A DNA stretch of 64,000 bases from an uncultured virus (IMG/VR IMGVR_UViG_3300029258_002403) (IMGVR_UViG_3300029258_002403); one strand, 5' to 3'; shown: positions 26,188-63,140, counted from the stretch's first letter. Program-made: numbers and translations. The notes: generated by a model from the letters alone, not told the origin.

Positions 26188-27603
26188 CTAGTCCTCCGAC
26201 CCGCTCTCGATCACGATGGCCCGCTTGTACCGGCCGCCGGTCTGGCCGCCGAGCAGGTCCGTGGGGACGCCCCAGTCACCACTCCAGGACCAGGACTGGG
26301 AGACCTGCTGCTGGAGGCGGTCCTGCGGGGCGCGGATGATGTACCGGATCCGCTCGGTGCTGATCTGGATCCCGTTGTTGACCACCGAGAACTGGCCCAC
26401 CTTGCCCACGTACCCGGCCTCGGTGAGGTAGTCGCTCTCCTCATCGATCCACTTCTCCATGATGGAGCCGCCGCCGGTGATGATCGTGCGGATCACGCCC
26501 ACGCCCGCGGCGTTGCGGACCTCGCCGTAGTGCTCGGGGCTGGCCAGAGCCGAACCCGCGGACAGGGGGCGGCTCCCCACCAGACCAGCGCCCTGGAGGG
26601 GGTCGCTGTTGAACACGTTGGGGCTCTCGTTGTTGGTGAAGAAGATCGCACCCAGGAGGCGCCCGATGGCGAACTCGGCGTAGCGCAGACCGTCCGGCAC
26701 CCCCTGGTTGAGGCGCTGGAACTCGTTGTCGTTGTAGATCTGCGACTCGGCCACCGGGTCCAGGTGGACGTGGTAGTACCCGTCCGCGTGGGTGGGCACC
26801 CGGTTGCGCCGGAGGATGGCAATGGCCTGGCGGATCTCCTTGAGGGAAAGAGCCGACACGGCGGTGAGGCCGTCCACGGTGGCGGCACCACCCACCCGGA
26901 TGATCCGGGGAGCGTCCACGGCCAGGACGCGAGCGCCTGCCAGGAACGTGGTGGCCGCGGCCAGGGTGAGGGTACCCGGGCCGAAGGGGTTGTTGGGATC
27001 GGCGGGGGCGGCCGCGATCACGTTGTGGGTTCCCGCCACGCCGCTGATCCGCACCACCTTGGGGTTGCCGCCGCTGATCGGGACCTCCTGGCCGTTGACG
27101 ATCGTGGTGGTGAACCCGTTGAGGCTCGCGACCACGAGGGTGGCGGAAGGTGCACCGGCATTGTCGGTCACCGTGTCCCCGCCGGTGTAGGCGCAGAACA
27201 GGCGGTTACGGGCCACCCGGTTGAGGCTCTGGCCAGCCTGGAGGCCCAGGGTCTTGGCGTTGCGAGCGAAGATCGGCGCCAGGCTGGTGCGGCTCGACGG
27301 CATGTGGGTGTCCATCGAGTCGCCGTACTGCTCGGCGCGGACGCTCCACTGTTCGAACGACGGCTGCTTGGGCGTGGGATCCGTCCCGGGGGTGAGCGGC
27401 TTCACGGCCGGGGGCAGCAAGCTGCTCCGGGTGAAGATCTGCGAATCGCCCACGTTGATCTCCCACTTCTCGGGCATGGCTTCCTCGCGGAACAGGAGCT
27501 GCGGGAACAGAGCGTCCCGAAACTCGCGCGCCAGGGTGTTGTCCTGCACGATGGGGTCGAGGAAAGCGAGGGGCGGAAGAATGGATCCGAGTCCGGCGGC
27601 CAT
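26188..27603 (-). CDS. Major capsid protein (HK97 fold, N4-gp56-like)
   Basis: 471 aa after the scaffold; 'PLTPGTDPT...EQYG...LGLQAGQSLNRVARN', 'DGYYHVHLDP', 'QDRLQQ..SQSW'. Confidence 0.85.
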   Translation of the reverse strand: MAAGLGSILPPLAFLDPIVQDNTLAREFRDALFPQLLFREEAMPEKWEINVGDSQIFTRSSLLPPAVKPLTPGTDPTPKQPSFEQWSVRAEQYGDSMDTHMPSSRTSLAPIFARNAKTLGLQAGQSLNRVARNRLFCAYTGGDTVTDNAGAPSATLVVASLNGFTTTIVNGQEVPISGGNPKVVRISGVAGTHNVIAAAPADPNNPFGPGTLTLAAATTFLAGARVLAVDAPRIIRVGGAATVDGLTAVSALSLKEIRQAIAILRRNRVPTHADGYYHVHLDPVAESQIYNDNEFQRLNQGVPDGLRYAEFAIGRLLGAIFFTNNESPNVFNSDPLQGAGLVGSRPLSAGSALASPEHYGEVRNAAGVGVIRTIITGGGSIMEKWIDEESDYLTEAGYVGKVGQFSVVNNGIQISTERIRYIIRAPQDRLQQQVSQSWSWSGDWGVPTDLLGGQTGGRYKRAIVIESGSED

Positions 27604-37706: not shown

Positions 37707-38132
37707 CTAGTCGTGCGACACGGAAAGGGCGTCGCCCGTGATCGTCACGTCCGCCACCGCCACCGCGGCCACCCCATCCACGTCGGCAAGGGCCTTGGCT
37801 ACTTCGGCCGCGGTGTAGGGGACCGGGCCCAGGTCGGCCATGGACGACTCGGGGTCGTTGGCCAAAAGCCACTCCGCGGCGGCGTCCTGGTCGGCCCATC
37901 CCGTCCCATCGCACGTGGAGCACAAGGTCATGCTGGCCTGGGCGCGAAACCGACGAGCCACCACGTCCTGGGGGGTGGTGGTGGAACGAACGTCCGGGGT
38001 GACCCCGGTCCCCTCACAGCAAGGGCACTCCACCCGGCCCACGGCGCGCTTGGCCGCGGCGATCTCCGCCGACAAGGCCGTTTCCAGGACGGCCTTCAGC
38101 CGCTGGCGTGTTTGGTCTGGGGTCTGTTCCAT
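37707..38132 (-). CDS. Zinc-finger protein with sheath/baseplate-like C-terminal fragment
   Basis: CPCCEGTG, CSTCDGTG, AAAEWLL, then YTAAEVAKALADVDGVAAV. Confidence 0.65.
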   Translation of the reverse strand: MEQTPDQTRQRLKAVLETALSAEIAAAKRAVGRVECPCCEGTGVTPDVRSTTTPQDVVARRFRAQASMTLCSTCDGTGWADQDAAAEWLLANDPESSMADLGPVPYTAAEVAKALADVDGVAAVAVADVTITGDALSVSHD

Positions 38133-46637: not shown

Positions 46638-47108
46638 CTACTTCTTTCGCGCGCGCGATGGAGTTCGGGTGAGCCACCGGGCCATCCTGGGGAAACGGTC
46701 CAAAACGGCCTCCAGCAGGTTGCCAAGGCCCTTCCCCACGTGGTCGTGGTCGTGGACCACCCGGCGCTTGGCGGGGGCGGGGTCCAGGTGGACCTTGCCC
46801 ATGTCGTCCACCACCACGTGGTACGGGATCTCCCCTGCCGCCCTGGCGGCTCGTTCCATGGCTTGGTTGAACTGGCGGGCGGACTTCCCTGCTTGGCGGA
46901 CCCCCTGAACGGCGTAGGTGTGCCAGGCGATCCCCGCGGGGTAGCTCACCTCGGGGCGGGGATCGTCGTCGTCCCCATGTTCCAGGAGCCACTGGGCCGC
47001 CTGTTCGGGTGTGCATTGGCCTACGTCCAGGCAGCAGGGGCACGACTCGGCGTTGTAGTTGCGGAGTTCCGGGGTGCAGGCCGGGCACGGCACGAGGTTG
47101 TGGGTCAT
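46638..47108 (-). CDS. Zinc-finger protein with appended C-terminal segment
   Basis: CPAC, CPCC, QAAQWLLEHGDDDD plus about 105 aa. Confidence 0.65.
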   Translation of the reverse strand: MTHNLVPCPACTPELRNYNAESCPCCLDVGQCTPEQAAQWLLEHGDDDDPRPEVSYPAGIAWHTYAVQGVRQAGKSARQFNQAMERAARAAGEIPYHVVVDDMGKVHLDPAPAKRRVVHDHDHVGKGLGNLLEAVLDRFPRMARWLTRTPSRARKK

Positions 47109-47542: not shown

Positions 47543-47774
47543 CGGTGGCGCACCTGCACTGGATGTGGAGGGGAGGGGTCCCGAAGGGAGACCCCACTGG
47601 CTCGTCGGCCGCCAGTAGGGCCGCGGCCACGTGATTGCGGTACGCGGCGGCGTCCTCCGGGGGAACTCGGCCGTACCCTGCGCACTCGTCGCACGGCAGG
47701 GGAGGGTCGTAGGTCCCGGGCTCGGCCCGCCCGCCGTGGCAGTGAGGGCAGGTGACCAGGGTGGAATCAGGCAT
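47535..47774 (-). CDS. Zinc-finger protein ending in a gpF-like PPLHxxCRC motif
   Basis: CPHCHG, CDECAGYG, AAALLAADE, PPLHIQCRC. Confidence 0.65.
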   Translation of the reverse strand: MPDSTLVTCPHCHGGRAEPGTYDPPLPCDECAGYGRVPPEDAAAYRNHVAAALLAADEPVGSPFGTPPLHIQCRCATDD

Positions 47775-48117
47775 CGTCTTCCTCCATGAGGCGGCGGTAC
47801 ATCTCCGGGTGGATGGCCACCGTCGCGGGAACCGGGACCGGTTTGGCGTTTCGAAGGATCTCCGCGGCCCGGCGGACATCGGCGGCGGTGAGGGCCCCGG
47901 GGGTGGGGTCGTCTTCCAGGATCAGGGCCGCGGCGGCCTTGTCGGGGGTGGTGTGGCCGGCGCCGTCGCACACAGGGCACAGACCCGTCCCGTGGCACGC
48001 AGGGCACTCCACCCACCCGCTGCTGCTCACGGCCTGCTTGCCCGTGCCGTCGCACGCCCTGCACCGCACGGTCTCCCCGTGGCACAGAGGGCACGGGACT
48101 TGGCGTTCTCCGTCCAC
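47767..48117 (-). CDS. Zinc-finger protein with capsid-like C-terminal fragment
   Basis: Four CxxCxG, AAAALILEDD, then ALTAADVRRAAEILRNAKPVP..VAIHP. Confidence 0.65.
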   Translation of the reverse strand: MDGERQVPCPLCHGETVRCRACDGTGKQAVSSSGWVECPACHGTGLCPVCDGAGHTTPDKAAAALILEDDPTPGALTAADVRRAAEILRNAKPVPVPATVAIHPEMYRRLMEEDDA

Positions 48118-48634: not shown

Positions 48635-48937
48635 TCACCCGTTGAGGAGGGCCCTGGCCCCAACGTCCCGGGGGACCGTCTTGGCCCCCTGGCACAGTGA
48701 GCACGGGACGTTGCCCCTCCCCCCGCAGTTGGGGCAGTCGTGGGACCCCTTGGGGTCCTCCCCGTCCCCCTGGCACTCCCTGCACACCTCCGTGCCGAAG
48801 GCGTAGTCCTTGGCACCCCCGCAGTCCTGGCAGGGGACCATCACCCGACGACCCCCCTCCAGGGTGGGGTGCTGTCCATGCTCGTCGCAGCGGTGGCAGC
48901 GTCCCCAGCAGGCCGGACAGGGGACCCGGTCAGTCAT
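48635..48937 (-). CDS. Multi-CxxCxGxG zinc-finger protein
   Basis: Six CxxC pairs; ends GARALLNG. Confidence 0.65.
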   Translation of the reverse strand: MTDRVPCPACWGRCHRCDEHGQHPTLEGGRRVMVPCQDCGGAKDYAFGTEVCRECQGDGEDPKGSHDCPNCGGRGNVPCSLCQGAKTVPRDVGARALLNG

Positions 48938-49298
48938 GGTCCCCTTGTCGGGCCGTCCACACCGGCAGGCCGGTGCGCAGGGCCTCCTGGCGTGCCTGGG
49001 ACACGACCCGGAGCCTCCCATCCCAGTCCGCCCCCGGGGGGTCGTCCTGGTCCATGAGCCACTGGGCGGCCTGGGCCCTGGTGACGGTCCCTTCCCCGTG
49101 GAGTTCTCCGCACAGGTCACACGCGGCGAACCCTGTGCCGCCGCAGGCGCCACACCACCCCTGGCTGTCCTCCGGGTCCCCGAACCCGGACCCGTCGCAG
49201 TAGGGGCAGGTGGCGCTTTGGGCCACGTCGGCGCAGGCGGGGCACTGGATGGCCTCCTGGGCGGCAAGCACGTCGGCCGCGGTAGTGTCGTCGGTCAT
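48930..49298 (-). CDS. Zinc-finger protein with DnaB-like C-terminal motif
   Basis: Four CxxC, QAAQWLMDQDD, then QEALRTGLPVWTARQ. Confidence 0.65.
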   Translation of the reverse strand: MTDDTTAADVLAAQEAIQCPACADVAQSATCPYCDGSGFGDPEDSQGWCGACGGTGFAACDLCGELHGEGTVTRAQAAQWLMDQDDPPGADWDGRLRVVSQARQEALRTGLPVWTARQGDHD

Positions 49299-50980: not shown

Positions 50981-52090
50981 CTAGTTGGCGCCAAGTCGGG
51001 CGTCCAGCTCGGCCACCACGGCGGGGTCCGGGGTGAACCCCTCCGGGAGCCGGGCGAGCCGCTTGCGGAGGTAGGACGTGGAGCACTCGATCGCGGCGGC
51101 CACCTGCTCCTTGTCCTTGCCGGCGTCCAGTTGGGACTTGGCCCACCCGAACAGATCGTCGGGCTTGCCCCGCTTGCGTCCGTCACCGTTGGACTTGGAC
51201 CGCTTGGTGCGGCTGGTGGCGATCCGGTCGGCCATGGCGCCGAGCAGGGTGCCGATCTCCGCGAGCAGGGGGTCGTTGGCGGCGGCGATCTTCTCCTGGA
51301 CCGCGGCGGCGGCGGCAACCAGGGGGTCCACGTCGGTGCCCTTGGGCGGCGGCGGGATCTTGAACCCCTCCTGGGGACCATCCCCTTCCCGGACCACCAC
51401 GGGGGCCGTGGGGGCCTTCCCCTTCTTCTTGGGGGCCTTGGGCCGCGGCGCGGGGGTGGGGTCCACCTCCGGGGCGGGGGTGGGGGCACCAGCGGCGGCC
51501 GGGGTCACGAGCCACACGTCGTCCGTTCCCACCTTCTCGATGGCCTTGGCGGCGCGGCCCTCCACCAACTCGGCGTGGAGGACCGACCCCTCGTCCGCGG
51601 CGGCGGCGGTGACCCGGTATCGGGCCTTGGCGCGGCGGCCCGTTTTGATCACGTCCCCCACCACCAACTGCACGGCGGCGTACTTCCCCGCGGGGCGGTC
51701 ATCCGCGGCAGGAGTGTCGTCAGCGTCCGGGGTGGGCTCCGGCGCGGGGGTGTCGTCGGCGGGGGGCGTCACCTGGCCCACGGGGTTGATCGTGAGGAGG
51801 TCGGCGTCGGCGTTGGGGCCGTGGCGGTCCATCCACGCGTCGATCGCCCCGTCCGGGTCGCCGTCCCACTGGGCGGGGAGGCTCCAGGACCCCTCCGACA
51901 TCACGGCGCCGGCCCGGAGCAGGCACGTCTCGGCGGCGGCGCGGCCCTCCGGGGTCTCGCCCAGTTCGAAGAAGATCGCCACGTCGTTGGCCGTCACGGC
52001 GTACTCCTCGGCCACGTACTCGATCAGGAGGCGAGCGGAGGGTCCGGTGAGGGTGGGGAGGGCGGGGGTGGTGTTGGTGTTCTCGGTCAT
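50981..52090 (-). CDS. Multidomain protein with C-terminal HTH
   Basis: ATG 52090 with AAGGA RBS; 'KEQVAAAIECSTSYLRKRL'. Confidence 0.65.
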   Translation of the reverse strand: MTENTNTTPALPTLTGPSARLLIEYVAEEYAVTANDVAIFFELGETPEGRAAAETCLLRAGAVMSEGSWSLPAQWDGDPDGAIDAWMDRHGPNADADLLTINPVGQVTPPADDTPAPEPTPDADDTPAADDRPAGKYAAVQLVVGDVIKTGRRAKARYRVTAAAADEGSVLHAELVEGRAAKAIEKVGTDDVWLVTPAAAGAPTPAPEVDPTPAPRPKAPKKKGKAPTAPVVVREGDGPQEGFKIPPPPKGTDVDPLVAAAAAVQEKIAAANDPLLAEIGTLLGAMADRIATSRTKRSKSNGDGRKRGKPDDLFGWAKSQLDAGKDKEQVAAAIECSTSYLRKRLARLPEGFTPDPAVVAELDARLGAN

Positions 52091-52165
52091 CGTTCTGTCC
52101 TTGTCTCCCGGGGTCCTCCCCCGGGGTTCCAAGTATCCCCTAGCGCCGCCGCCCGACAAGAAACC

Positions 52166-52180
52166 GGTGAAATCAACCGA
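52166..52180 (-). promoter_or_regulatory. Conserved 15-bp upstream element, copy 2
   Basis: ggtgaaatcaaccga upstream of TTGTCG..GATACT on the minus strand. Confidence 0.45.
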
Positions 52181-52317
52181 ACACCGGGGCCGCCCGTCCA
52201 GGCGCCCCCAGGGGGTGCGGGGTGGGACCGGGGCCGACCCCCTCCACCACCATGAGGTGCGCAAAACGCGCACTTTTGTGGGTGTCCCGCGGACACCACG
52301 GCGCGCCGCAGCGGACC

Positions 52318-52890
52318 TCACCCGCGCGGGTGAGCGAGCGCCAGGAACTCGGCCCGCACCTTGGGGTCGTCGCGGAACTTGCCCAGGAGGGCCGAGGACA
52401 CCATGGCCACGTCGGTCTTGTGGACCCCGCGGGTGGTCATGCACTGGTGCTGCGCGCGGATCACCACACCCACGCCCAGGGGGTTGAGCGCCTCCTGGAT
52501 CGTGTCCGCGATCTGACGGGTGAGCTTCTCCTGGATCTGGAGGCGCTTGGCGAACGCGTCCACCACCCGCGCCAGCTTGGAGATCCCCACCACCCGGTCG
52601 CGCGGCAGGTAGGCCACCGTGGCGGTGCCGATGATCGGCACGATGTGATGCTCGCAGTAGGACTCCAGGCGGATGTCCGTGAGCACCACCATCTCGTCGT
52701 AGCTCTCGGTCTCCTCAAAGGTCTTGGCCAGCATGGCGGCCGGATCGGCGTCGTACCCCCCGAAGAACTCCTCGTAGGACCGAACCACGCGATCTGGCGT
52801 CCCGACAAGTCCCTCCCGGTCGGGGTCGTCCCCCGCCCAGCGGATCAGAGTGCGGACTGCGGCTTCGGCTTCTTGGCGGCTGGGCTTCAT
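52318..52890 (-). CDS. folE: GTP cyclohydrolase I
   Basis: '[11 protein letters not shown]', 'SYCEHHIVP', 'GISKLARVV', 'RLQIQEKLT', 'HQCMTTRGV'. Confidence 0.95.
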
Positions 52891-53576
52891 GGAACTCCGG
52901 TGATCTTGTGGGTCTGGAGGGACAGGCGCCACTCCGGGAAGGCTTGGCAGTACGCCGCGGCGCGGCGGATGTTGTCCACGTTGAGGACGGAGACCCCCAC
53001 GGCGTGGGGGACGGCCTCCGGGCTCACGAACAGGTGGTCGAACCCCGCGGTGATCTCCGCGTACTCCTGGGGGTTGTAGCTGGGGACCACCACCTTCAAC
53101 TCCGTGCCGCGGCGGATCACGATCCGGTCGGGGGGAGTCTTGGGGCTCACGCACACGTGGTCCACACCCTCCCGCACCCCGTGGGGGACCTTGGGGGCCA
53201 CGGTGCCGTTGGTCTCCACCGCCAGGATGGCGTCGGGGTACGCGCCCCGGAGGGCTTGGATCAGCTCGCGGTCGATCTGGAGGAACGGCTCGCCCCCGGT
53301 GATCACGATCAACGGCGGAGGGTCCATGCCTGCGTCCTGGGCCGCCAGGACCACCCGGTCGGCCACCTCCGCGGCGGTGAGGGTGTCACCCCCCACAAAG
53401 TCCGTGTCGCAGAACACTGGGCACTTGGCCCCGTTGCGCTCCGCATCTCTGGCGCGGTCCTTGTCCAGGCCATTCCACAAGTTGCACCCCGCGAACCGAA
53501 GGAACACCGACGCGCGGCCGGCGTGGAGGCCTTCCCCCTGGAGAGTGGCGAACACCTCCTTGACCCGGTAGGTCAC
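52887..53576 (-). CDS. queE: 7-carboxy-7-deazaguanine synthase (radical SAM)
   Basis: '[10 protein letters not shown]', 'FLRFAGCNL...CDTDF', 'ITGGEP', 'ETNGT', 'SLQTHK'. Confidence 0.93.
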
Positions 53577-53809
53577 GCGCCCCCCTTGGTCACCTTGGCG
53601 CCGATGATCACCAGGGTGTCCTCGCCGTCCCGGTCGAACGTGTCGTCGGGGTCGTTGTCGATCCACTGGTCCAGGGCGTCCCACTGATCTGCGGGAAGGG
53701 ACAGGTGGTAGTACCCGTCGTCCGCAGGGGTCACCTTGCGGCTCCGCAGACCCGCGACTTGGCGCCGGATCTCGCGGAAGCCGTTGGCCGCAGGGGACTC
53801 GTTCTCCAT
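53573..53809 (-). CDS. Small protein containing a major-capsid-like fragment
   Basis: REIRRQVAGLRSRKVTPADDGYYHLSL is 13/27 identical to the capsid protein. Confidence 0.65.
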   Translation of the reverse strand: MENESPAANGFREIRRQVAGLRSRKVTPADDGYYHLSLPADQWDALDQWIDNDPDDTFDRDGEDTLVIIGAKVTKGGA

Positions 53810-53810
53810 G

Positions 53811-54278
53811 TCATGCACTCCCATCCAGGTACTCCTTGGGCGCCCGGAACTGGGCGCTGTTGGTGCCGTGCTCGCGGCACTCCACCATGGCGATCTTGAC
53901 GCGGGGGTAAGCGCCGTTCTTGCGGAGCCACTGGTCCACGTGGCGCCACACGTACTCCGCGAACGCCTCACACCCTACCGCCGGAAGGACAGACAGGTCC
54001 ACCACCCCCTCGGGGAGGCCGCGGATCGCCGCCAAGGCGGGGTCGTCGGCAGCCAGGACGAGCTTGTGGTCGAAGGTGTCCTCCAGCCACTTCTTGACCT
54101 CCTTGAGGGCGCCGAAGTCCATCACCCAGTTCTTGTCGTCCAGGGTGGCGCTGTGGAACTCCAGGTGGAACCCCAGCGCGTACCCGTGGATCAGGGAGCA
54201 GTGGGAGTGCGTGGCGCGCCACTGGCGGAACGCGCAACTCCACCCGGGGGTGTAGGTCTTGGTCGAGACGTAGGGCAT
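53811..54278 (-). CDS. queD: 6-carboxytetrahydropterin synthase
   Basis: 'HCSLIHGY', 'WVMDFGALKEVKKWLEDTFDHK', 'GCEAFA', 'EHGTNSA'. Confidence 0.9.
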   Translation of the reverse strand: MPYVSTKTYTPGWSCAFRQWRATHSHCSLIHGYALGFHLEFHSATLDDKNWVMDFGALKEVKKWLEDTFDHKLVLAADDPALAAIRGLPEGVVDLSVLPAVGCEAFAEYVWRHVDQWLRKNGAYPRVKIAMVECREHGTNSAQFRAPKEYLDGSA

Positions 54279-54299
54279 GGGGCTCCTGGCGCGGCGATC

Positions 54300-54755
54300 C
54301 TACAACGGGTCGCGGCTCACGGTGTAGTAGGTCATCCCCGGGTTGTGGCCGATCTTGTCCCGCACCCCCATGACCCCCAGGCGGATCGCCAGGAGGCGGA
54401 AGCACGCCACCTCCCCGTCCGCGGTGAGGCGGGAGGTGTCCCCGCGGATAGCGCCGGGGGCGTTGTACTTGAGGCAGGACTCGTGGGCCCACCCGTCGAA
54501 CAGGTCGAACATGGCCTGCGCCACCTGTTCGTTGGTCCCCGGATCCCGGAACGGCGCGGCGGTGGCCTCCTGAATCGCGGCCTCCATGGGCTCCACGGTG
54601 TCCCGGAACGCGGGGAACCCCACCTCCGCCAGGGTCTGGAACGTCACCTCCACCGTGCCGTAGTGGCGGTGCCCCTTGAGCTTCATGGCGGAGTTGAGGT
54701 TGTGGAACTCCAGGCCCAGGGGGCCCACCGTGATCGTCTCCAGCCTACGTCCCAC
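54300..54755 (-). CDS. Second T-fold (QueD-like) protein with HRH motif
   Basis: 'LKGHRHYGTVEV', 'TNEQVAQAMFD'; adjacent to queD. Confidence 0.55.
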   Translation of the reverse strand: MGRRLETITVGPLGLEFHNLNSAMKLKGHRHYGTVEVTFQTLAEVGFPAFRDTVEPMEAAIQEATAAPFRDPGTNEQVAQAMFDLFDGWAHESCLKYNAPGAIRGDTSRLTADGEVACFRLLAIRLGVMGVRDKIGHNPGMTYYTVSRDPL

Positions 54756-55758
54756 GCGCGGCCTCCCTTTCCTTGTCGAGCGCGTCCAGGCGCGCCATCT
54801 CCTTGCGCCACCGGAACCGCAGTTTGCGTTCCAAGGCCATGTACCACTCGATCTCGGCGCGGAGGTGTTGGTGGGTGCCGCCGCGGACGGACATCTTGCC
54901 GTACACCTTCCAGTTGCCGAAGGCGCACGGGGCCGTCTCCCAGTTGCTCGCGTCCGCGCTGTGGAACGGGAACCGCATGAGGATCTCCTCGCTCGCGATC
55001 CCGAACGCGTGGATCTTGTGGGGCCACGCGCGGGCGAACACCTGCTCGATGAACTTGATCTTGCGCGCCTTGTGGAGTCCCACCATGCCCCCCACCGCGA
55101 ACTTGGGGTAGCGCTTGACCTCCTGGACCACCTCCCAGGGCTCCCCGATGTGCATGGTGGGGATCACGGGGATCCCCTGGCGCACCATCTCCTCACAGTT
55201 GCGCAGGGACGCCTCGGGATCCCCGATCACGTCCAGGCCGAACACCTCCGTGAGCTTGGGGTCCTCCTCCAGGAGCCGGGCGCACGTGTCGATGTACTCC
55301 TGGAGGTCGATGGTGACCCCGCTGTTGGCCGCCGAGTAGGCGCCGCTGTCCATCACCCAGTCCCGAAACCCCATGCGGTGGCGGTGCTTGAGGAACCCGG
55401 ACAGGTAGAAGTACGACACCAGCACCGCGGGCTCCTCCCCTTGATCCGGGGCCAGGCCCATGACCGTGCGCTCGCTGGTGACCAGCGCCATACGCATGGT
55501 TGGACTGTCCGCAGCCGCGGGGCCGCGGGCCTGGGTGCCGGTGATCGCGTGATTCACGTTGGACCCCAGGGCGAACCGGACGTTTGGCGCCTCCCCCTGG
55601 GGAGCACGGGGAGGGAAGGCGCGGACGGTGCGATCCATGGTGCGGTCGTTGACCGCCATTCGGACAGTGGGGCTGTCCTCACTAGGCATGAACCCCCCGA
55701 AGGCCTTGACCGTGCGCGCGGGGTCGGTGATCCCCACCGCCAGGCGCACGGTGGTCAT
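54745..55758 (-). CDS. TGT/DpdA-like DNA 7-deazaguanine transglycosylase
   Basis: 'VMDSGAYSA', 'LDVIGD', 'IPTMH', 'AVGG', 'KIHAFG', 'SADASNW'; beside que genes. Confidence 0.75.
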   Translation of the reverse strand: MTTVRLAVGITDPARTVKAFGGFMPSEDSPTVRMAVNDRTMDRTVRAFPPRAPQGEAPNVRFALGSNVNHAITGTQARGPAAADSPTMRMALVTSERTVMGLAPDQGEEPAVLVSYFYLSGFLKHRHRMGFRDWVMDSGAYSAANSGVTIDLQEYIDTCARLLEEDPKLTEVFGLDVIGDPEASLRNCEEMVRQGIPVIPTMHIGEPWEVVQEVKRYPKFAVGGMVGLHKARKIKFIEQVFARAWPHKIHAFGIASEEILMRFPFHSADASNWETAPCAFGNWKVYGKMSVRGGTHQHLRAEIEWYMALERKLRFRWRKEMARLDALDKEREAARGT

Positions 55759-56453
55759 GCACTGGCGGCCTCCCGCGCCGCGGCGGTCTTGGTGCGCGCC
55801 GCGTCCACGAGGTCGTCACCGTCCCACCCCGGGCCCAGGAGGGTGTCCAGTTCCTCCTTTTGGTCCGGGGACAGGAGGACCTTCCACGCCTTGACCCCGT
55901 TGCGGCCCCCCACCTCGGCAGGCTCGCCACCGATGGCGTCCTCGGACTTGCCGTCGTCCCCCGCGGGGTCGGCGTCCGGGTCCACGTCCGGGGTCTGGAA
56001 CTCCGCGTTCATGAGGGGTTCCAGTTCGTAGTCCTCCCACCCCAGACCCGCGGTGCCCCACCCCGCGGCGTCCAGGTCCGCGAAACGGCCCACCAACTCC
56101 TCGTAGTCCCACTCCGCCAACTCGGCGGTGCGATTGTCGGCCAGGCCGTAGGCGATGGCGTCCGCCTCCGTGTCGAAGGTGCGGACGTTGGCGGCGATGT
56201 GGGTCCACCCCAGGGCCAGGGCCGCGTCCACCGTCCCGTTGCCGGCGATCACGATGTCGCGGCCGCCCTGCTCCTCGGTCTGGCGCCACACCACGATGCA
56301 CTTGGCCTGCCCCGACTGGCGCAAGCTGGCCATGGTGGCCTCCCGGTTGCGCTGGTTGTGCTTCCGGGCGTTCTTGGGGTCCAAAGTGAGCCCCGCGATC
56401 GGGACCGCGAGGGGACGTAGTGACTCGTTGATGTACTCGTGTTGTGCGGGCAC
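55755..56453 (-). CDS. ParB/Srx-like N-terminal domain protein
   Basis: 'DPKNARKH', 'VIAGNGTVDAALALGW', 'LADNRTAELAEWD'; AGGAGG RBS. Confidence 0.8.
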   Translation of the reverse strand: MPAQHEYINESLRPLAVPIAGLTLDPKNARKHNQRNREATMASLRQSGQAKCIVVWRQTEEQGGRDIVIAGNGTVDAALALGWTHIAANVRTFDTEADAIAYGLADNRTAELAEWDYEELVGRFADLDAAGWGTAGLGWEDYELEPLMNAEFQTPDVDPDADPAGDDGKSEDAIGGEPAEVGGRNGVKAWKVLLSPDQKEELDTLLGPGWDGDDLVDAARTKTAAAREAASA

Positions 56454-56487
56454 GGTTCCTCCTGGCACGGGCCGCCGCGCGTTTGGT

Positions 56488-56844
56488 CTACTTGGACCGC
56501 TTCTTGCTGCGCTTCCGTGTCTCGCCTTGGCCGGTGGCCTTATCGGCCATGGCAGCGGCCGATTCCAACTTCTCGGGGGGCGGAGCGTCCGGTTCCAGGA
56601 CCACGGGCTCCGGCTCCATGACCACGGGGGTGGCCTTGGGGAACACCTCCTTGTGGATGGCCGGCACGTCCAGGGTCTGGCCCATCTTGCCGCCGCTCCG
56701 TCCATCTACGAACACCACGCACTTGCCCCCGGCGCTCACGGGGCACCGGACGGCTGCGCCGTCATAGGTGGCCCACACGCCGCCCTCGGCGTCGATCTCG
56801 TGGTTGGGTACGTCGGGGATGGGTCGTCGTTCGGGTGTGGGCAT
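56488..56844 (-). CDS. NUMOD4-like domain protein
   Basis: 'RRPIPDVPNHEIDAEGGVW'; GGAGGA RBS. Confidence 0.5.
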   Translation of the reverse strand: MPTPERRPIPDVPNHEIDAEGGVWATYDGAAVRCPVSAGGKCVVFVDGRSGGKMGQTLDVPAIHKEVFPKATPVVMEPEPVVLEPDAPPPEKLESAAAMADKATGQGETRKRSKKRSK

Positions 56845-56858
56845 GGTGTGTCGTCCTC

Positions 56859-57209
56859 CTATACCCCCAGCGCCCCGCCGACCGCGCGACCCAGCACCTT
56901 GGCGGCGCGGAGTCCCAGGTCTTCGAGCGCGTCCAGGAGTTCCGCGCGCCGGCGAGCGATACCAGCGAGTTGCTCGGTGGTGCCGTCCCGGTAGGCGCGC
57001 CATTCCTCGGGGGACATCATGGCCACGATCTCCTGCTTGGCGCGGAATGTGTCCCCCCTCTTGAGGGCGCGGAAGATGTCCGCGGCCTCGTCCTTGGCCA
57101 GGCCGACGAGGTGGTCCTTGTTCTCGTCCCACCAGCGGCCAGCTACGCCGCGGAGTTCACCCGCGACCGACTCCCAGAGTTCCCGGGTGATCAGATCCCC
57201 GACGCTCAC
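56859..57209 (-). CDS. Helical hypothetical protein
   Basis: GTGA overlap. Confidence 0.6.
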   Translation of the reverse strand: MSVGDLITRELWESVAGELRGVAGRWWDENKDHLVGLAKDEAADIFRALKRGDTFRAKQEIVAMMSPEEWRAYRDGTTEQLAGIARRRAELLDALEDLGLRAAKVLGRAVGGALGV

Positions 57210-57481
57210 TGGCCGCCGCCTTCCTCACCGCCATCGGCGGCGGGGGCGTCGTCGCAGTCCTCACCCTTGACGATCGCGTCGATGCACTCGGCCTGCTTGG
57301 CCATGGCGTCCAGGTCGTCCTGCGTACACTTGCCGTTGCCGTACCCGTCCGCCTCACAGGACGCGGCCACGGCCTTGGTCTGGACGTGGTGATCTTCCGC
57401 GGGGTGGCGGAGAGTCTTCTTGAGGCAACCCCCCAGGGGGAGGAGCAGGACCGCGAGCAGGACCAGGGAGGCACGACGCAT
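57206..57481 (-). CDS. Putative lipoprotein
   Basis: MRRASLVLLAVLLLPLGG-C lipobox. Confidence 0.65.
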   Translation of the reverse strand: MRRASLVLLAVLLLPLGGCLKKTLRHPAEDHHVQTKAVAASCEADGYGNGKCTQDDLDAMAKQAECIDAIVKGEDCDDAPAADGGEEGGGQ

Positions 57482-57520
57482 GGTGGCAGTGTGCCCCACC
57501 CCCGGGGTGCCCGTCCAGTC

Positions 57521-57964
57521 CTACTCCACCGTGCGGATCCTGCGTGCGTAGTCCGCCAGGAGGAGGGCGTCGGCGGTGGCATGGACCACCTTGGCCCCCG
57601 GGAACAACTGCTGGGCGCGGGCCTTGGTGACGTTCTTGTCCCCCTTGGACCGGCAGGACATGGCCCCCTGCCACTTGGCGGGGGTCACCAGTTCGTACCG
57701 CACCCCGGCCGCCGCCAGGGCCATCTCGCAGTGGCCGAACGACATGCCGAACTTGAAGGTGCTCGCCACCCCCTGCTTGGGCATGGCGCTCACCTTCTCC
57801 AGCACGGCGAACGAGATCTCCGCGCGGTGGCGGTCGAGCCACTCCCACACGTCGCGCAGGGTGTTGTCCAGGCGGATCACCTCCACCAGACCCCCGTCCC
57901 CGTCCACCACCGCCATGGCGCCGGACTTGCCAGGGTCCACCCCCAGGTAGTTCACCGGGGCCAC
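57521..57964 (-). CDS. ruvC: RuvC-like Holliday junction resolvase (start may be 57955)
   Basis: 'LGVDPGKSGA', 'LEKVSAMPKQGVASTFKFG', 'PAKWQ', 'ADALLLA'. Confidence 0.85.
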   Translation of the reverse strand: MAPVNYLGVDPGKSGAMAVVDGDGGLVEVIRLDNTLRDVWEWLDRHRAEISFAVLEKVSAMPKQGVASTFKFGMSFGHCEMALAAAGVRYELVTPAKWQGAMSCRSKGDKNVTKARAQQLFPGAKVVHATADALLLADYARRIRTVE

Positions 57965-58041
57965 ACCCCCAGGATAGCCAGGCCGGTCACCAGCGCCAAG
58001 GCCACCCGGAGCATGAGCCGGTCATCCGAGGGGACTACCAC
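57952..58041 (-). CDS. Possible 29-aa single-TM peptide
   Basis: Hand translation MVVPSDDRLMLRVALALVTGLAILGVWPR; AAGGA RBS; overlaps both neighbours. Confidence 0.35.
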   Translation of the reverse strand: MVVPSDDRLMLRVALALVTGLAILGVWPR

Positions 58042-58784
58042 CGGGCGTCCTTGTCTGGGTCAGCTCGGCGGCGGAAGTCCTCCAGTGTGGGGCGCACCGC
58101 CAGACTGTCCGAGCAGTTGCCGTGCTTTTGGCACCGGGTCCGCCAGTCCGTGAGCCCCGCTCGGAGGCGCCGCCACTTGGGGACGTGCTTGTGCCAGGCC
58201 GCCTCCACCTTGGTCCTGTCCTTGCCGTACCCGGCCCAGGCGTGGCGCACGTCCTCGCTGGTGCAGGGTGTTCGCTCGGAGATCTCCTCGGCGCGGAGGG
58301 CCTTGGATTCCCGGTTGTAGTGGCGGCGGCACACCTGGCGCGCTCGGATCGCGGCGCGGAGGGCCGACCACAAGGGCACGTCCAGGATCTCCGGGGGGAC
58401 GCACGCCCCCAAGTCGTGGAGGGCGTACCCGGCCACCTGGCCGTGATTGCCCCGGGTGGCCAGGTCCACGGGGTGATCCTCGATCCCCCAGTAGAACGGG
58501 CACCACTGGGGCAGGCGGCCCCGCTCCATGAGCTTGGGGAGGATGTGGGCCCCAGTCCACCCGTCCCGGCTGTGGATCCCCACCGGCCGCGTGCAACCGC
58601 CGCTCTCCACCAGGCACAGGTCTGTGACAATCCCGTCCGGGATGTCTTCGAACACCGCGTCCACGAACAGGCTGGACTCCATGGGGTCCATGGGGTCCAC
58701 CAGCGCCGGTGCGTCGGCCGGGAGGCCGGACAGGGCGCCGGGAGTGATGAAAAGGGCGAGCAGCCATGCGTAGAGCTGTTCCAT
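58035..58784 (-). CDS. Exported protein, possibly lysozyme/transglycosylase-like
   Basis: N-terminal hydrophobic signal; 'LCLVESGG' resembles the SLT catalytic ES motif. Confidence 0.45.
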   Translation of the reverse strand: MEQLYAWLLALFITPGALSGLPADAPALVDPMDPMESSLFVDAVFEDIPDGIVTDLCLVESGGCTRPVGIHSRDGWTGAHILPKLMERGRLPQWCPFYWGIEDHPVDLATRGNHGQVAGYALHDLGACVPPEILDVPLWSALRAAIRARQVCRRHYNRESKALRAEEISERTPCTSEDVRHAWAGYGKDRTKVEAAWHKHVPKWRRLRAGLTDWRTRCQKHGNCSDSLAVRPTLEDFRRRADPDKDARW

Positions 58785-58808
58785 AAGCCGGTGACCCTAC
58801 CTAGCGCG

Positions 58809-60515
58809 TCACACGCGGGCAAGGACCCCCTGGGTCACGTGCCAGTGCTCGCGAGCCACGGCGCGGAGCGCCTGGGCGGCCTGGTGCGCGATCACCACCA
58901 CGGTGCGGTCCTGGGCCAGTTCCCCCACGGCGGCAGATACCCGGGCCACCCCGTCCGCGTCCAAGGCGTCAAAGATCTCGTCGCAGAAGATCGTGCTGTG
59001 ACGTTCCCCACGCGCCGCCTCGGCCACTTGGGCTAGGGCAAACATCAGGGCCACGTCCACACGACGACGCTCTCCGCCGCTGGCAGACGCGTACCCGCGC
59101 CCGCCATCACCCGCCAGGGCCTCGGCCTCGGCCACCGCAGCGTCGTCGTCCTCCAGAAGGGCGGCGGCCTGGGTGTTGTGGTCCGTCTCGATGGACAAGG
59201 CCACTTGATCCTTGACCCCGCCGTCCTTCTTGGTGCCGTAGGGGCGAAGGACCAGGCGGAGGTTGCCGTGGCAGATCCGGCCGAGCCACGCGTTGGCGGC
59301 CGCCTCGATGGCGGAGATCGTCTTGCCCAGGAGGTGTGCCCGCACCCCCTTGGTCCCCAAGGTTTTGACGGCGGCCTTGAGGTTGACGAGCGCCGCGGCG
59401 GTGGTCTCGGCCTGGACTTCCAGGGCGGCCTGTTCCTGCTTGGCGGCGATCAGGTCGGCCGTGGCCTGGGCCCGTTGGTCCTCCAGGCCGTCACGGTGGG
59501 ACTTCTCCCGGTCGTAGGCAGCGGCGGCAGCGGCCGCGGTGGCGGCCTTGTCGATCTCGGTGGACAGGTCGGCCTGCTCCCGGCGGAGATCGGCCAGGTC
59601 GGCCTCCAGGTCGGCCACCGCGTTCTGGATCTCCTGCTCCTTGGCGGCAGCAGCGGCCTCGGCCTTGGCCACCGCGTCCTCCAAGGACGCGCGGAGGTCG
59701 TCCCCGATCGGCTGGCCGCACGTGGGGCAGTTGGCCGCGGACAAGCGGTCCCGCTGGCGGCGAGCGTCCATGGCCGCGGCCTTGGCGTCCCGGCCCGTCC
59801 CCTCCACCTTGCGGATCTCCTGGGACCGTTCCCGGATGTCCCGGGTGGTCTGGGTCTGGAGGTCCCGCAGGCTCGACGCTGCATCCGGGTCGTAGTCAGG
59901 GGGTGGTCCCAGGTCCCCATCGGGTGGGACCAAGCCAGCGAGACGCGTGCGGATCCCCGCCACCCTCTCCTGGACCACCCGGAGGTCTGCCCCCACCCCC
60001 GCGGCGTCCTTCTCCAGGGTGCGGAGGTCAGCCAGGGCGGCACGGTACGCACCCTCCAGGCCCCCAGCCCCCGTGAGGGCTTCGATCATGCGCTTGCGGT
60101 CGGCATCAGTGGCCATGGTGAAGTTGGCCGCGTCCTGGCTGGACAGGACACACGACCGGCGCCACTGGTCGAACGACCCGAACTTGGCGTCCAGTTCGGC
60201 CTGGGCCTTGGTGGTGCTGTCGTGCTTGGGGCCGTTGTCCCACTTGACCTTGACCCGCCCCTTGGGGGTGCGGCGGTACAGGACGCCCCCCACCCGGACG
60301 GCGGCGCTGATCTTGGACGGGTCCAGAAGCCCCTCGTTCCACAACGGCGCCCCTCGGAGGGTCTTGCCCCACACTGTGAGGGGCACCGCCTCGATCAGGG
60401 TGCTCTTGCCGCTCCCGTTGTCCCCGGTGACCAGGACCACCCCAGTGTCGGGGAGGGTGAGGGTGGTACGAGAATGGCGGGTTACGCCGCGGAGGTAGAT
60501 CTCGGAAACACGCAT
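58809..60515 (-). CDS. sbcC: SbcC/Rad50-like ATPase
   Basis: GDNGSGKST Walker A, CPTCG zinc hook, coiled coils, SGGE signature, 'FCDEIFDALD'. Confidence 0.9.
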   Translation of the reverse strand: MRVSEIYLRGVTRHSRTTLTLPDTGVVLVTGDNGSGKSTLIEAVPLTVWGKTLRGAPLWNEGLLDPSKISAAVRVGGVLYRRTPKGRVKVKWDNGPKHDSTTKAQAELDAKFGSFDQWRRSCVLSSQDAANFTMATDADRKRMIEALTGAGGLEGAYRAALADLRTLEKDAAGVGADLRVVQERVAGIRTRLAGLVPPDGDLGPPPDYDPDAASSLRDLQTQTTRDIRERSQEIRKVEGTGRDAKAAAMDARRQRDRLSAANCPTCGQPIGDDLRASLEDAVAKAEAAAAAKEQEIQNAVADLEADLADLRREQADLSTEIDKAATAAAAAAAYDREKSHRDGLEDQRAQATADLIAAKQEQAALEVQAETTAAALVNLKAAVKTLGTKGVRAHLLGKTISAIEAAANAWLGRICHGNLRLVLRPYGTKKDGGVKDQVALSIETDHNTQAAALLEDDDAAVAEAEALAGDGGRGYASASGGERRRVDVALMFALAQVAEAARGERHSTIFCDEIFDALDADGVARVSAAVGELAQDRTVVVIAHQAAQALRAVAREHWHVTQGVLARV

Positions 60516-60847
60516 CAGTCTGTGCGGAGCGCGGCCTTGTAGTCGGACACGATCTGGCGGCCAGGCCGCACGTCCATCCGGGGGTCGCGGTCGATCAGAT
60601 CTAGCGCGCTCTCCAGTGTGGCGGAAAGGCGGTCGGCGTGAAACCGCAGGAGGTGGAACTCCCGAACGATCGGCGCCAAGACGGGGTCCGTCTGACATCG
60701 GTGGCGGGCCGCGGCCACCTCCAGGTTGTGGGCGAACACGAGGTACCGGGGGACCCCCTGGTCCCGATCCGCCGCGTCCTGGTAGCACGCGCGGACCACC
60801 GCCGGGGGCAGACCGAAGGGACGATCGGGGGTGTGTTCCATGGCCAC
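60515..60847 (-). CDS. Hypothetical protein
   Basis: Coupled between sbcD and sbcC. Confidence 0.55.
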   Translation of the reverse strand: MAMEHTPDRPFGLPPAVVRACYQDAADRDQGVPRYLVFAHNLEVAAARHRCQTDPVLAPIVREFHLLRFHADRLSATLESALDLIDRDPRMDVRPGRQIVSDYKAALRTD

Positions 60848-62022
60848 TAGACTACCCCCTCCGCGGTGACGTAGTGGCGCACCAGGCGGAGAACCTCATC
60901 CCGGTCGGGATCCCCCTCAAAGGGGGCCATGCCCACGTACTCCGCCACGGCTCGTTCCACCGTCTCCGCATCCCGGGCGCTCATGGCCGCCGACTCGATC
61001 CGGCGCCGAACATCCTCCGAGTCCACCACCACCTCGTACCCCGCCGGGTGGGCGTCGCTCTCCGCGAACGCAGCGTTGACGGCGGCCACCGCATCCGGGC
61101 TCGCCACGATCTGGACGTACACCTGATTGCCCGACCCTCGGTGGGTGTCACTGGCGGCCGTGATCGCGTCCCGGACGTTGGCGGTCTTGACGAACCGGGG
61201 GCCGTGGATCACCTCCCGTCGTAGGCGCTCCCCGGGGGCGCTGGCGCTGTCCCACGTGATCAAGGACCCGTAGGGGTCGCGCCCCGGGTCCAGTTGGCGG
61301 ACGGTGGATGGGTTGTCCCACCCTGTAGGGCACAGCGCGCCCACCTGCATGATCTCCAGGCCGTTGTCGAACCTCCACGACCGGTGCTCGTGCCAGTCCC
61401 CGGCCAGGACCGACGAGAACCCCCACTCGTTGGCGATCTCCGCCAGGGTGTTCACGTCGATGGCCCCCTCCGCGCCCGCGAGCCACGGGGGAGTCCGGGC
61501 ATCTTTGATCCCCATGTGCAGGACCAAAAGCGCTCCCTCCGGCCACCCGGCGCCCACGTCCGTGTAGGCCAGAGCCGCACGGATCACGTCCTCGGCCTTC
61601 CCGGGGGCGTAGGGGACCAGGACCACCGCGGCGCCATCCTGGGACAGCACCTTGGGACGGTCCACCACGTCGGCCACCGGGGCCATGGGTCCCAAGGCGT
61701 GGTCCCCCTGCGTCTCGCTCCCGTGCTCGTGATTCCCCAGGACCAACTGGCCCCAGTGGTCCCCCGGGCCATAGTCCTCGTTGGCCCCCTCCTTGGACAG
61801 CGCCGCCTGGGCCATGGCCACGATCTGGGGCGGGACGTGGAGGCTGTCGAACAGGTCCCCCGCGCACACGAACAGGTTGGCCCCGTCCATCCTGGCGCGG
61901 GACACGGCGCGGGAAAACACCGCCCCGGTTAGTTGGCCGCGGCGGTTGATCCCCGCCACCACCTCCCCGCCGTGGCGGCGGTGATTGGCTACATGCACGT
62001 CGGCTACGGTTGCGACTCTCAC
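60847..62022 (-). CDS. sbcD: SbcD/Mre11-like metallophosphoesterase nuclease
   Basis: 'ADVH', 'AGDLFD', 'GNHE', 'GDWH'; GTGA overlap with recA. Confidence 0.88.
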   Translation of the reverse strand: MRVATVADVHVANHRRHGGEVVAGINRRGQLTGAVFSRAVSRARMDGANLFVCAGDLFDSLHVPPQIVAMAQAALSKEGANEDYGPGDHWGQLVLGNHEHGSETQGDHALGPMAPVADVVDRPKVLSQDGAAVVLVPYAPGKAEDVIRAALAYTDVGAGWPEGALLVLHMGIKDARTPPWLAGAEGAIDVNTLAEIANEWGFSSVLAGDWHEHRSWRFDNGLEIMQVGALCPTGWDNPSTVRQLDPGRDPYGSLITWDSASAPGERLRREVIHGPRFVKTANVRDAITAASDTHRGSGNQVYVQIVASPDAVAAVNAAFAESDAHPAGYEVVVDSEDVRRRIESAAMSARDAETVERAVAEYVGMAPFEGDPDRDEVLRLVRHYVTAEGVV

Positions 62023-63029
62023 ACCCCTACCTTGCGCACCTTCCGTCGGATCGCTTCCATGATCTTGGGGTGCTCTCGGAGGTACGTGATGGCGTTGGCG
62101 CGCCCCTGGGCCACGTTCTCCCCCTTGTAGGCGTAGAAACTGCCCTTCTTGTCCATCACCCCGGCGATCACGGCGGCGTCGATCACTTCCGCGGCCTGGT
62201 CGATCCCCACCCCGAACGCAATGTCGAACTCGGCCTCCTGGAACGGCCGCGCCACCTTGTTCTTGACCACCTTGACCTTGGTCTTCATGGCCACGGTCTG
62301 CTCCCCGCTCTTGACCGCGGAGATCCGGCGCACCTCCAGGCGCACGCTGGAGTAGAACTTGAGGGCGTTGCCGCCGCTGGTGGTGGTGGGGGAGCCGAAG
62401 AACTTGCCCACCTTGGACCGGGTCTGGTTGATGAACAGGACCAGGGTGCCGTTCTTGGACGTGGCTGCGGTGAGGCGGCGCATCACCTTGGACATCATGC
62501 GCGCCTGGAGGGCCATGGACTGGTCCTCGATCTCCCCGTCCAGTTCCGCCTTGGGGGTGAGGGCGGCCACGCTGTCCACCACCACCACGCCGAACCCCCC
62601 GGTGCGCACCACCATGTCCACCACACCCAGCGCCATCTCGCCGTAATCCGGCTGCGAGATCAGGAGGTCGTCGGTGTTGACCCCGATGGCCTCCGCGTAC
62701 ACGGGGTCCAGGGCGTGCTCGGCGTCCACGAACGCGGCGGGCAGGCCGAGCCGTTGCGCCTCCGCGATCACGTGGAGGCACAGGGTGGTCTTGCCGCTCG
62801 ACTCCGGGCCGTACACCTCCACGATCCGCCCCCGTGGAAGGCCGCCCACGCCGATGGCGTCGTCCAGGCCCATGGACCCGGTGCTGATCACGTCGTGCTT
62901 GAAGTCGGACGCGGAACCCAGGCGCCGGGCCGCCTCCCCGCCATACTTGGCCTGGATGGCATCCAGGGCGGAGGTGAGGGGGCTGTCCGCGGTGGCGGCG
63001 GGTTTGGGGTCTTTCTTTTTCCGTGGCAT
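62019..63029 (-). CDS. recA: RecA recombinase
   Basis: 'GLPRGRIVEVYGPESSGKTT', 'DAEHALDP', 'DSVAAL', 'GGNALKFYSSVRL'. Confidence 0.97.
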   Translation of the reverse strand: MPRKKKDPKPAATADSPLTSALDAIQAKYGGEAARRLGSASDFKHDVISTGSMGLDDAIGVGGLPRGRIVEVYGPESSGKTTLCLHVIAEAQRLGLPAAFVDAEHALDPVYAEAIGVNTDDLLISQPDYGEMALGVVDMVVRTGGFGVVVVDSVAALTPKAELDGEIEDQSMALQARMMSKVMRRLTAATSKNGTLVLFINQTRSKVGKFFGSPTTTSGGNALKFYSSVRLEVRRISAVKSGEQTVAMKTKVKVVKNKVARPFQEAEFDIAFGVGIDQAAEVIDAAVIAGVMDKKGSFYAYKGENVAQGRANAITYLREHPKIMEAIRRKVRKVGV

Positions 63030-63140
63030 GGTCGGTCCTCAAAAGGCGCCGCGCCCCCGGGGGCAAGAACGGTCCCCGTGGCGCGACTGCGGGTGTTGTT
63101 TCAATGCAAGGGACACCGCCCGCTGGTCCCCAGGCTCCCC

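Follow-up and report, generated by a model that had tools for sequence, protein, structure and literature searches.

A small gene related to the capsid A-domain core between queD and queE of a phage DNA-modification operon, and its possible role as a capsid mimic

Why would an operon for DNA modification carry, between queD and queE, a small gene that resembles a piece of a major capsid protein? The question arises from a 64,000-nucleotide stretch of DNA from an uncultured virus (IMG/VR IMGVR_UViG_3300029258_002403), hereafter the window, in which a 78-amino acid open reading frame (ORF) plus stop, P0001, is found by translation at 53573..53809 on the minus strand. A prediction made from the sequence alone (the original prediction) had described it as a stand-alone fragment of the major capsid protein and suggested that it might be a decoy for a capsid-sensing defence. 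We consider it likely that P0001 is at once a real gene, a homologue of the capsid A-domain and a lineage-specific insertion. The further proposal, that its product is a soluble mimic of the unassembled capsid A-domain which occupies a capsid-recognising factor, is one to which we give, taken whole, a probability of roughly one in three.

The translation and the Pfam and PHROGs assignments of the neighbours agree with the placement of this ORF between queD and queE. Its ATG (53809) lies 1 nt past the TGA stop of queD. At the other end, its stop codon (TGA, 53575-53573) and the GTG start of queE (53576-53574) overlap in a GTGA, which bears out the coupling to queE that had been proposed. An in-frame alternative ATG at 53824 would lengthen the product to 83 aa. 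This longer form is P0003, called in a public metagenome and 99% identical to P0001, with one replacement, A8G, in the unstructured N-terminus. Shine-Dalgarno-like sites, read from the sequence at 53818..53837 on the minus strand, could serve the two candidate starts: AAGGAG (53837-53832) is 7 nt 5′ of the ATG at 53824 and GGGAG (53822-53818) is 8 nt 5′ of the ATG at 53809. The GC content per codon position (0.68/0.44/0.90) is similar to that of the neighbouring genes. Codon-usage log-odds, trained on 16 well-supported window genes, give P0001 0.654 bits per codon in frame and -0.96 and -1.18 in the other frames; in 78-codon windows real genes score 0.59 +/- 0.31 and off-frame sequence -1.08 +/- 0.24. 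Both halves of the gene are coding-like, and the half without capsid similarity scores higher (1.03, with a GC content at third codon positions, GC3, of 1.00).

Moreover, between the window and a contig of 99.75% identity there are 20 differences in 8,075 positions, just one of which is inside P0001, and that one is synonymous (P28 CCT>CCC). The same substitution is also present in two sequencing runs, each from a separate study, where one contig spans queE-P0001-queD. Contigs from four runs are short pieces of the window phage; they give partial cover, with one synonymous P0001 difference. Given the codon-position GC, the codon usage, the Shine-Dalgarno-like sites, the GTGA overlap and a DNA polymorphism that is synonymous only, P0001 is, judged by its sequence, a genuine small protein-coding gene. 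The codon usage and the synonymous nature of the sole DNA polymorphism also speak against a decaying duplicate, an outcome that the original prediction had named as fatal to its claim.

The resemblance to the capsid lies in residues 7-41 of P0001 (53687..53791, minus strand), a helix followed by a DGYYH strand, which BLASTP, hhalign and a hidden Markov model (HMM) all recover. They correspond to residues 250-284 of the major capsid protein, encoded at 26752..26856 within the capsid gene (26188..27603, minus strand; 471 aa, HK97 fold). The BLASTP alignment to capsid residues 250-281 is ungapped, with 14/32 identities, 32.0 bits and a pairwise E of 8e-7, and the 13/27 identities first noticed are its inner part. 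The Smith-Waterman score of 67 was reached by 0/20,000 shuffles of P0001 and 0/5,000 shuffles of the capsid (maximum 57; Gumbel p ~1e-5). Among the 76 proteins called in the window (18,096 aa), P0001 matched only the capsid (BLASTP E 2.9e-5, phmmer E 5.5e-5), the second-best score being 20 bits (E 0.45); seemingly unrelated protein pairs in an all-against-all comparison of the window reach at most ~30 bits. The alignment is thus significant, and the refuting outcome of a non-significant one, which the original prediction had allowed for, did not arise.

The family as a whole gives the same result. Using hhalign, P0001 residues 10-41 matched positions 253-284 of a 30-capsid alignment with a probability of 94.5% (E 7.5e-8). 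An HMM of 120 capsid homologues scored P0001 at 20.0 bits (conditional E 1.2e-8, residues 12-41), the best of 5,000 shuffles reaching 7.0 bits. Run as a control over 953 six-frame open frames (30 aa or longer; 116,182 aa in total), this HMM matched only the capsid (792 bits) and the P0001 frame (19.0 bits, E 2.2e-5); the next frame scored 4.0 bits. Against the profile of the capsid family (PHROG 1357-like) the similarity is significant and confined to family positions ~253-284, and P0001 matches the same segment in 117/119 capsid homologues. Searched against PHROGs, P0001 returned no capsid family and no PHROG at all.

The capsid of the window phage is not the closest to the fragment: it ranks 26th of 119 (32.0 bits), P0092 reaching 36.6 bits and P0064 16/28 identities. 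P0001 did not, then, arise by recent duplication of the phage's own capsid gene. A 15-mer common to both genes had been put forward as a further link. Its two exact copies in the window, at 26770-26784 and 53705-53719, are confirmed, each encoding DGYYH on the minus strand. As evidence of a DNA-level copy it fails, since two DGYYH pentapeptides would be identical at all 15 bases with a probability of 0.23 under the codon bias of this phage. Identical residues use the same codon in 9/14 cases, 8.5 being expected, and DNA identity over the aligned 105 nt is 57/105. These values thus bear no sign of recent copying at the DNA level; codon bias accounts for the 15-mer, which is not independent evidence.

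The segment was also mapped onto predicted structures. A capsid model from the 30-sequence alignment had a predicted local distance difference test score (pLDDT) of 76.7, an HK97 fold and ~30 secondary-structure elements, and in Foldseek gave E 1.5e-9 to KHP40, LME-1, P-SCSP1u, GP4, Pam1 and Pan3. On this model the matched segment comprises helix 254-266, strand 277-281 and the start of helix 283-290. The single-sequence AlphaFold model of P0001 had a pLDDT of 85.1 and a predicted template modelling score of 0.68, with 4/5 models at 79.7 or above; its elements are helix 6-23, strand 34-38, helix 40-51 and strands 65-68 and 71-75. At an offset of 243, the P0001 elements fall on capsid helix 254-266, strand 277-281 and helix 283-290 in the same order and register. 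Foldseek of the P0001 model against the PDB and BFVD returned nothing at E ≤ 0.001; among the non-significant rows the T7 capsid was second (template modelling score 0.51) and the LME-1 capsid 25th, and the best BFVD row was an 80-aa viral protein (E 0.073). In a Foldseek-independent search of 48,161 PDB representatives, the top 9 rows were HK97-fold capsids or encapsulins, and by entry title HK97-fold shells made up 29 of the 50 best listed rows against a base rate of ~134/48,161. These shell rows aligned 58-74 of the 78 residues of P0001, and HK97 gp5 did so over its residues 249-318, which we take to be the A-domain at the centre of the capsomers.

A possible objection is that the gene is unrelated to the capsid and that chance or convergence has produced a common motif, a helix followed by a D-G-aromatic strand. 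This we hold to be very unlikely. Unrelated pairs in the window stay at or below ~30 bits, the profile score rises (20 bits, conditional E 1.2e-8, against 7 bits for the best of 5,000 shuffles), the six-frame control is clean with the next of 953 frames at 4.0 bits, the secondary structure is in the same register, and the 29/50 best structural rows stand against ~134/48,161 in the set searched.

P0001 thus resembles the A-domain of HK97-fold capsids (relatives by fold with solved structures include Ralstonia phage GP4 8h89, cyanophages Pan3 9vye and Pam1 7eel, and HK97 gp5 1ohg) in profile match and in helix-strand-helix register. Unlike these capsids it has no N-arm, E-loop, P-domain or spine helix and therefore cannot form a shell; it is also strongly acidic and is found in an early-type operon ~26 kb from the capsid gene. 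With 78 aa against the 471 aa of the capsid it has no complete HK97 fold and is not a capsid protein but a sub-domain homologue. By profile comparison, P0001 encodes a free-standing and diverged version of the HK97-fold capsid A-domain core, homologous to it. The original claim of a capsid-derived miniprotein inside a DNA-modification operon is supported here by pairwise, profile and six-frame statistics, by the secondary-structure register and by the ranking of HK97 shells.

The operon itself occupies 52318..56705 on the minus strand and was annotated with Pfam and PHROGs. In order of transcription it contains genes for a ParB-like protein (55755-56705), a DpdA-like protein (54745-55758), a 151-aa protein following DpdA (ORF151, 54300-54755), queD (53811..54278; 6-carboxytetrahydropterin synthase-like, Pfam PTPS E 1.9e-17, PHROG QueD-like E 1.6e-40), P0001, queE (52887..53576; radical-SAM CDG synthase-like, PHROG QueE-like E 2e-25, with homologues aligning from residue 1) and folE (52318-52890). 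Terminator-like hairpins lie 3′ of folE (52196-52164), and a promoter scan of 52000-57500 returned no sigma-70-like sites. Upstream, also on the minus strand, 57521-63980 encodes a RusA-like resolvase (phrog_1770), an SMC/RecN-like ATPase of 659 aa, RecA (Pfam E 3e-114) and a gp32-like single-stranded DNA-binding protein. This recombination and replication module places the operon among early or middle genes.

The same cassette is found elsewhere. Mycobacterium phage Hilltopfarm has the order ParB-like, 45-aa ORF, DpdA-like, ORF151 homologue, QueD, QueE and FolE, and its QueD (2468-2938) adjoins QueE (2938-3657) with no gene between. In viral contig L015, which has all six genes, QueD (2595-3026) overlaps QueE (3001-3627); in L013 (3543-4004 and 3983-4720) there is nothing between the two; and in L027 and L021/L022 gaps of ~5 nt and ~17 nt hold no intervening gene. 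As queD adjoins or overlaps queE in all of these, P0001 is a lineage-specific insertion, and as these cassettes do without it, it is not a general pathway component. Conservation in related phages, which had been named as a check on the fragment, was accordingly not found, the syntenic cassettes having no gene between queD and queE.

The insertion has left a footprint. An imperfect 7-nt direct repeat flanks it on the minus strand, with GCATGAC (53810..53816) at the queD/P0001 junction and GCGTGAC (53572..53578) at the P0001/queE junction, and deleting 238 nt (one repeat and the insert) would give a canonical ATGA overlap of the queD stop and queE start. On one reading, a piece of a capsid gene arrived by illegitimate recombination and its frame has stayed open only to let queE be expressed, as a translational relay with an inert peptide. 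The boundaries fit coupling exactly, with a 1-nt gap after queD and a GTGA with queE, removal at the repeat would restore the ATGA overlap, the ORF is limited to one phage population, and its similarity to the capsid is limited to ~32 residues. However, DNA similarity to the capsid is saturated at 57/105, with codon identity as codon usage predicts, and the resident capsid ranks only 26th of 119, so that the insertion event must be old or the sequence fast-evolving. Over such divergence, codon periodicity and usage are gene-like in both halves, GC3 being 1.00 in the non-homologous half, and the fold predicted from the single sequence is still confident (pLDDT 85.1, 4/5 models at 79.7 or above), whereas a relay requires just an open frame and neither gene-like codons nor a fold. 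We therefore consider an inert relay unlikely.

What, then, might the product do? Compared with deazaguanine pathway families, P0001 has no Pfam match above cut-off, no PHROG and no NCBIfam; the Pfam family WCX (E 0.097, 13.5 bits) fell below its cut-off of 23.9 and was rejected. P0001 is not a step of 7-deazaguanine synthesis. A second possibility is that it descends from a capsid A-domain and has a present function independent of that resemblance, for example as an acidic inhibitor of a host DNA-binding, restriction or defence enzyme, or as an accessory factor of QueD, QueE or DpdA in this lineage. P0001 has 16 acidic and 9 basic residues (pI 4.39), where the equivalent capsid segment has 9 and 8 (pI 6.3), and the acidic gain is concentrated in residues 39-64. 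It has also lost the near-invariant capsid residues P270, H280 and P283, and it is embedded and translationally coupled in an operon for anti-restriction DNA hypermodification. All of this would suit an exapted fold. Acidity is weak evidence by itself, though, the syntenic cassettes elsewhere function without a gene at the queD/queE junction, and there is no match to a Pfam, PHROG, NCBIfam or Atlas family. An unrelated job of this kind is in our view less likely than not, and only a little less probable than the explanation that follows.

The explanation that we favour is that P0001 acts as a mimic of unassembled capsid protein. Placed by a single-lineage insertion precisely at the queD/queE junction of the conserved ParB-DpdA-ORF151-QueD-QueE-FolE cassette, it would be translated in relay, from a start 1 nt past the queD stop to a stop that overlaps the queE start. 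Its model predicts a helix, the DGYYH strand, a second helix and a short hairpin, which would amount to an A-domain core. Because it lies in the DNA-modification operon, this product is probably made early, ahead of expression of the late capsid gene and with no other part of the capsid protein attached. The favoured target would be a host sensor otherwise triggered by newly made capsid protein, and the mode would be competitive, non-activating binding, as for DSAD1 against DSR2. A less likely target would be the capsid protein of the window phage or of a competing phage, whose assembly might be modulated or poisoned.

There are precedents for a mechanism of this kind. Bacterial immune sensors are known to recognise capsid, tail-tube, portal and terminase proteins directly (PMC11087589, PMC9712102, PMC3014915, PMC13601566), and CapRel is directly triggered by capsid proteins (PMC9712102). 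DNA-hypermodification operons protect from restriction (PMC6884629; PMC10516641). It may be that an early trigger mimic silences a host capsid sensor, so that immunity based on nucleic acids and immunity that senses proteins are both overcome by a single transcript, a combination that we regard as decidedly unlikely in its full form. The putative mimic or decoy function, though plausible, is the weak link of the explanation.

Four systems offer analogies. One is the T4 protein vs.8, which engages the terminase sensor Avs2 and is homologous to the ATPase domain of TerL but encoded separately; its authors suggest that proteins of this sort may serve anti-defence (PMC13601566). Like P0001 it is a lineage-restricted, free-standing domain copy of a conserved virion-assembly protein, and its parent protein, the terminase, is a known immune trigger (PMC13601566). 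Unlike P0001 it is terminase-derived, keeps its Walker motifs and was toxic with EcAvs2, as an activator, and P0001 is far smaller. DSAD1 of phage SPbeta competes with monomeric tail tube at DSR2 (PMC11087589). It resembles the working model for P0001 in being a small phage protein that blocks, without activating, the sensor site for a monomeric virion protein; it differs in that no tail-tube homology is described for it in the accessible part of that source and in being known by experiment and structures, whereas P0001 is a homologue of the putative trigger.

Gol, a 29-residue piece of T4 gp23, suffices for activation of Lit (PMC3014915). Here a capsid piece of ~29 residues is readable by a defence, and such pieces lie in conserved capsid regions. 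Unlike P0001, Gol is part of the capsid gene and activates the defence, and the P0001 core, although well conserved, is not from the most conserved capsid region. Finally, Ccm of SaPIbov5 is a capsid-protein homologue that interferes with capsid assembly (PMC8569155). Both are capsid homologues encoded outside a structural operon, for Ccm that of the phage acted on. Ccm, however, is a homologue of the whole helper capsid, satellite-encoded and able to co-assemble, whereas P0001 is a 78-aa sub-domain encoded by a phage. Literature searches for a stand-alone capsid A-domain mini-gene found no published description.

Several observations weigh against the mimic, and we gather them here. The first is functional: vs.8 and Gol are activators, not blockers, and an early capsid fragment could harm the phage. 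The second concerns which part of the capsid is matched. The 12-aa core at capsid residues 269-280, VPxHxDGYYHVH, ranks 20th of 460 windows in conservation over 120 capsids, but the 32-aa matched window ranks merely 137th of 440. Conservation in the capsid thus does not peak in the matched segment, as might be thought, but in residues 409-445. P0001 has the family majority residue in 14/35 aligned capsid columns and matches 6/11 of the columns that are at least 80% conserved, departing from the other 5/11, which include P270, H280 and P283. Capsid residues 269-283 (26755-26799) form a His-rich, near-invariant motif, VPxHxDGYYHVHLDP, with V269, P270, D274, G275, H278 and H280 invariant in 30 capsids and motif columns 85-100% conserved in 120. 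Of its conserved histidines P0001 retains only H278.

A third observation is that confident similarity to the capsid covers only ~32 of the 78 residues. Alignments past residue 41 (hhalign at mact 0.01, or global) were gapped and of low confidence, and were not used; an ungapped coincidence of DG at P0001 61-62 with DG at capsid 304-305 is merely noted. Fourth, a sequence search of the PDB with P0001 found antibody heavy chains only (E 0.018). We take this match as chance: P0001 residues 17-76 resemble FR3-CDR3-FR4 in the pattern VTPAD..YY......G..TLV......TKG, which shows what a 60-residue chance match looks like in a large database. The capsid profile found no solved relative by sequence among PDB sequences.

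The last observation is that P0001 is an ORFan. A word-indexed set of 5.8 billion proteins returned only P0003, and HMMER on 1.84 billion representatives returned P0003 and two long repeat proteins. The latter are spurious, scoring through 8 and 5 repeated short stretches. Using tblastn, 12 records among GenBank phages were found, all at E of at least 3, and in a set of 23 loci (L001-L023) identical copies and the capsid only; IMG/VR holds one 100% copy. The ESM Atlas gave no usable match. Stand-alone short copies of capsid residues 240-330 were searched for in the 5.8-billion set, and none of 17 candidates reached E ≤ 0.001. This ORFan status says little, because the conserved QueE is also without relatives above 49% identity in the viral and metagenome collections: of the 15 viral and 80 metagenome loci retained from its search, one was 100% identical and the others reached 49% at most. 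G002, a relative whose capsid is 79% identical, has a contig (68 kb, 78% complete) in which queE and any further capsid-like frame are absent, although the whole virus may still carry them.

Two further features of the operon bear on its product. QueC was not found among 66 minus-strand frames (18 scanned against Pfam, 59 against PHROGs, 11 of them against both), which was not a six-frame search. Phages with DpdA, FolE, QueD and QueE and without QueC carry DpdL, a QueD paralogue, and 7-deazaguanine in their DNA (PMC10516641). On this pattern, the window phage may make dDG or dCDG rather than dPreQ0. ORF151, for its part, has no Pfam, PHROG or NCBIfam family; its position directly behind DpdA is conserved in L015 and in seven records of Mycobacterium phages, among them Typha, Hilltopfarm and Bipper, at 35-37% identity in these phages. 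Three ORF151 homologues have M-x-L-K-x-H-x-H in common, in the window MKLKGHRH, which is reminiscent of the motifs CxxxHGH of QueD and LxxxHRHxF of DpdL (PMC10516641). BLASTP of ORF151 against the QueD of the window was non-significant (E 0.23). On its position and motif, ORF151 is a candidate DpdL-like partner of DpdA.

Downstream of the operon, 18 of the 20 differences to the 99.75%-identical contig (L002) cluster in 51739-52210, which takes in the spacer downstream of folE, with its terminator-like hairpins, and the beginning of the gene that follows. Identity to this contig falls to 96.3%, with 14 gap openings, below 51735. The stretch 51735-52210 and beyond is a local hot spot of variation beside the operon.

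The window as a whole has a G+C content of 69%, and its confidently coding frames are all on the minus strand. It belongs to a tailed phage to which few sequenced phages are related: a capsid search of GenBank phages matched 7 records, the best being Streptomyces phage Kromp at 34% identity, and most of 48 further window proteins compared with PHROGs had no family. Near-identical contigs are found in IMG/VR and in sediment and seawater metagenomes. The capsid homologue P0006, 79-80% identical, has as its source label a Croceicoccus sp. metagenome-assembled genome; together with the sediment and seawater copies this is a hint, and only a hint, that the host is an aquatic alphaproteobacterium. 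Elsewhere on the minus strand, the adjacent genes 30850-32955 and 32966-33814 have a common C-terminal module (43% identity over 173 aa, 109 bits, E 1e-29), and neither has a PHROG family. Four small proteins, at 47767-48117, 48930-49298, 37707-38132 and 46638-47108, form a loose paralogous family, with pair scores in the all-against-all comparison of 38.9 bits (E 1.5e-7), 30.0 bits (E 2.7e-4) and 27.3 bits (E 0.003). Pfam and PHROG scans assigned none of these to a family.

The case bears on how phages escape the sensing of structural proteins without altering proteins that are essential. If the mimic reading is true and P0001 is made early, on one transcript with the anti-restriction genes, a free-standing, diverged copy of the sensed type of domain would be a simple answer. 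Even if the decoy idea is wrong, P0001 is a clean case of a structural-protein sub-domain giving rise to a new small gene, with the footprint of its insertion visible in a conserved operon, and is thus useful for understanding the origin of phage ORFans.

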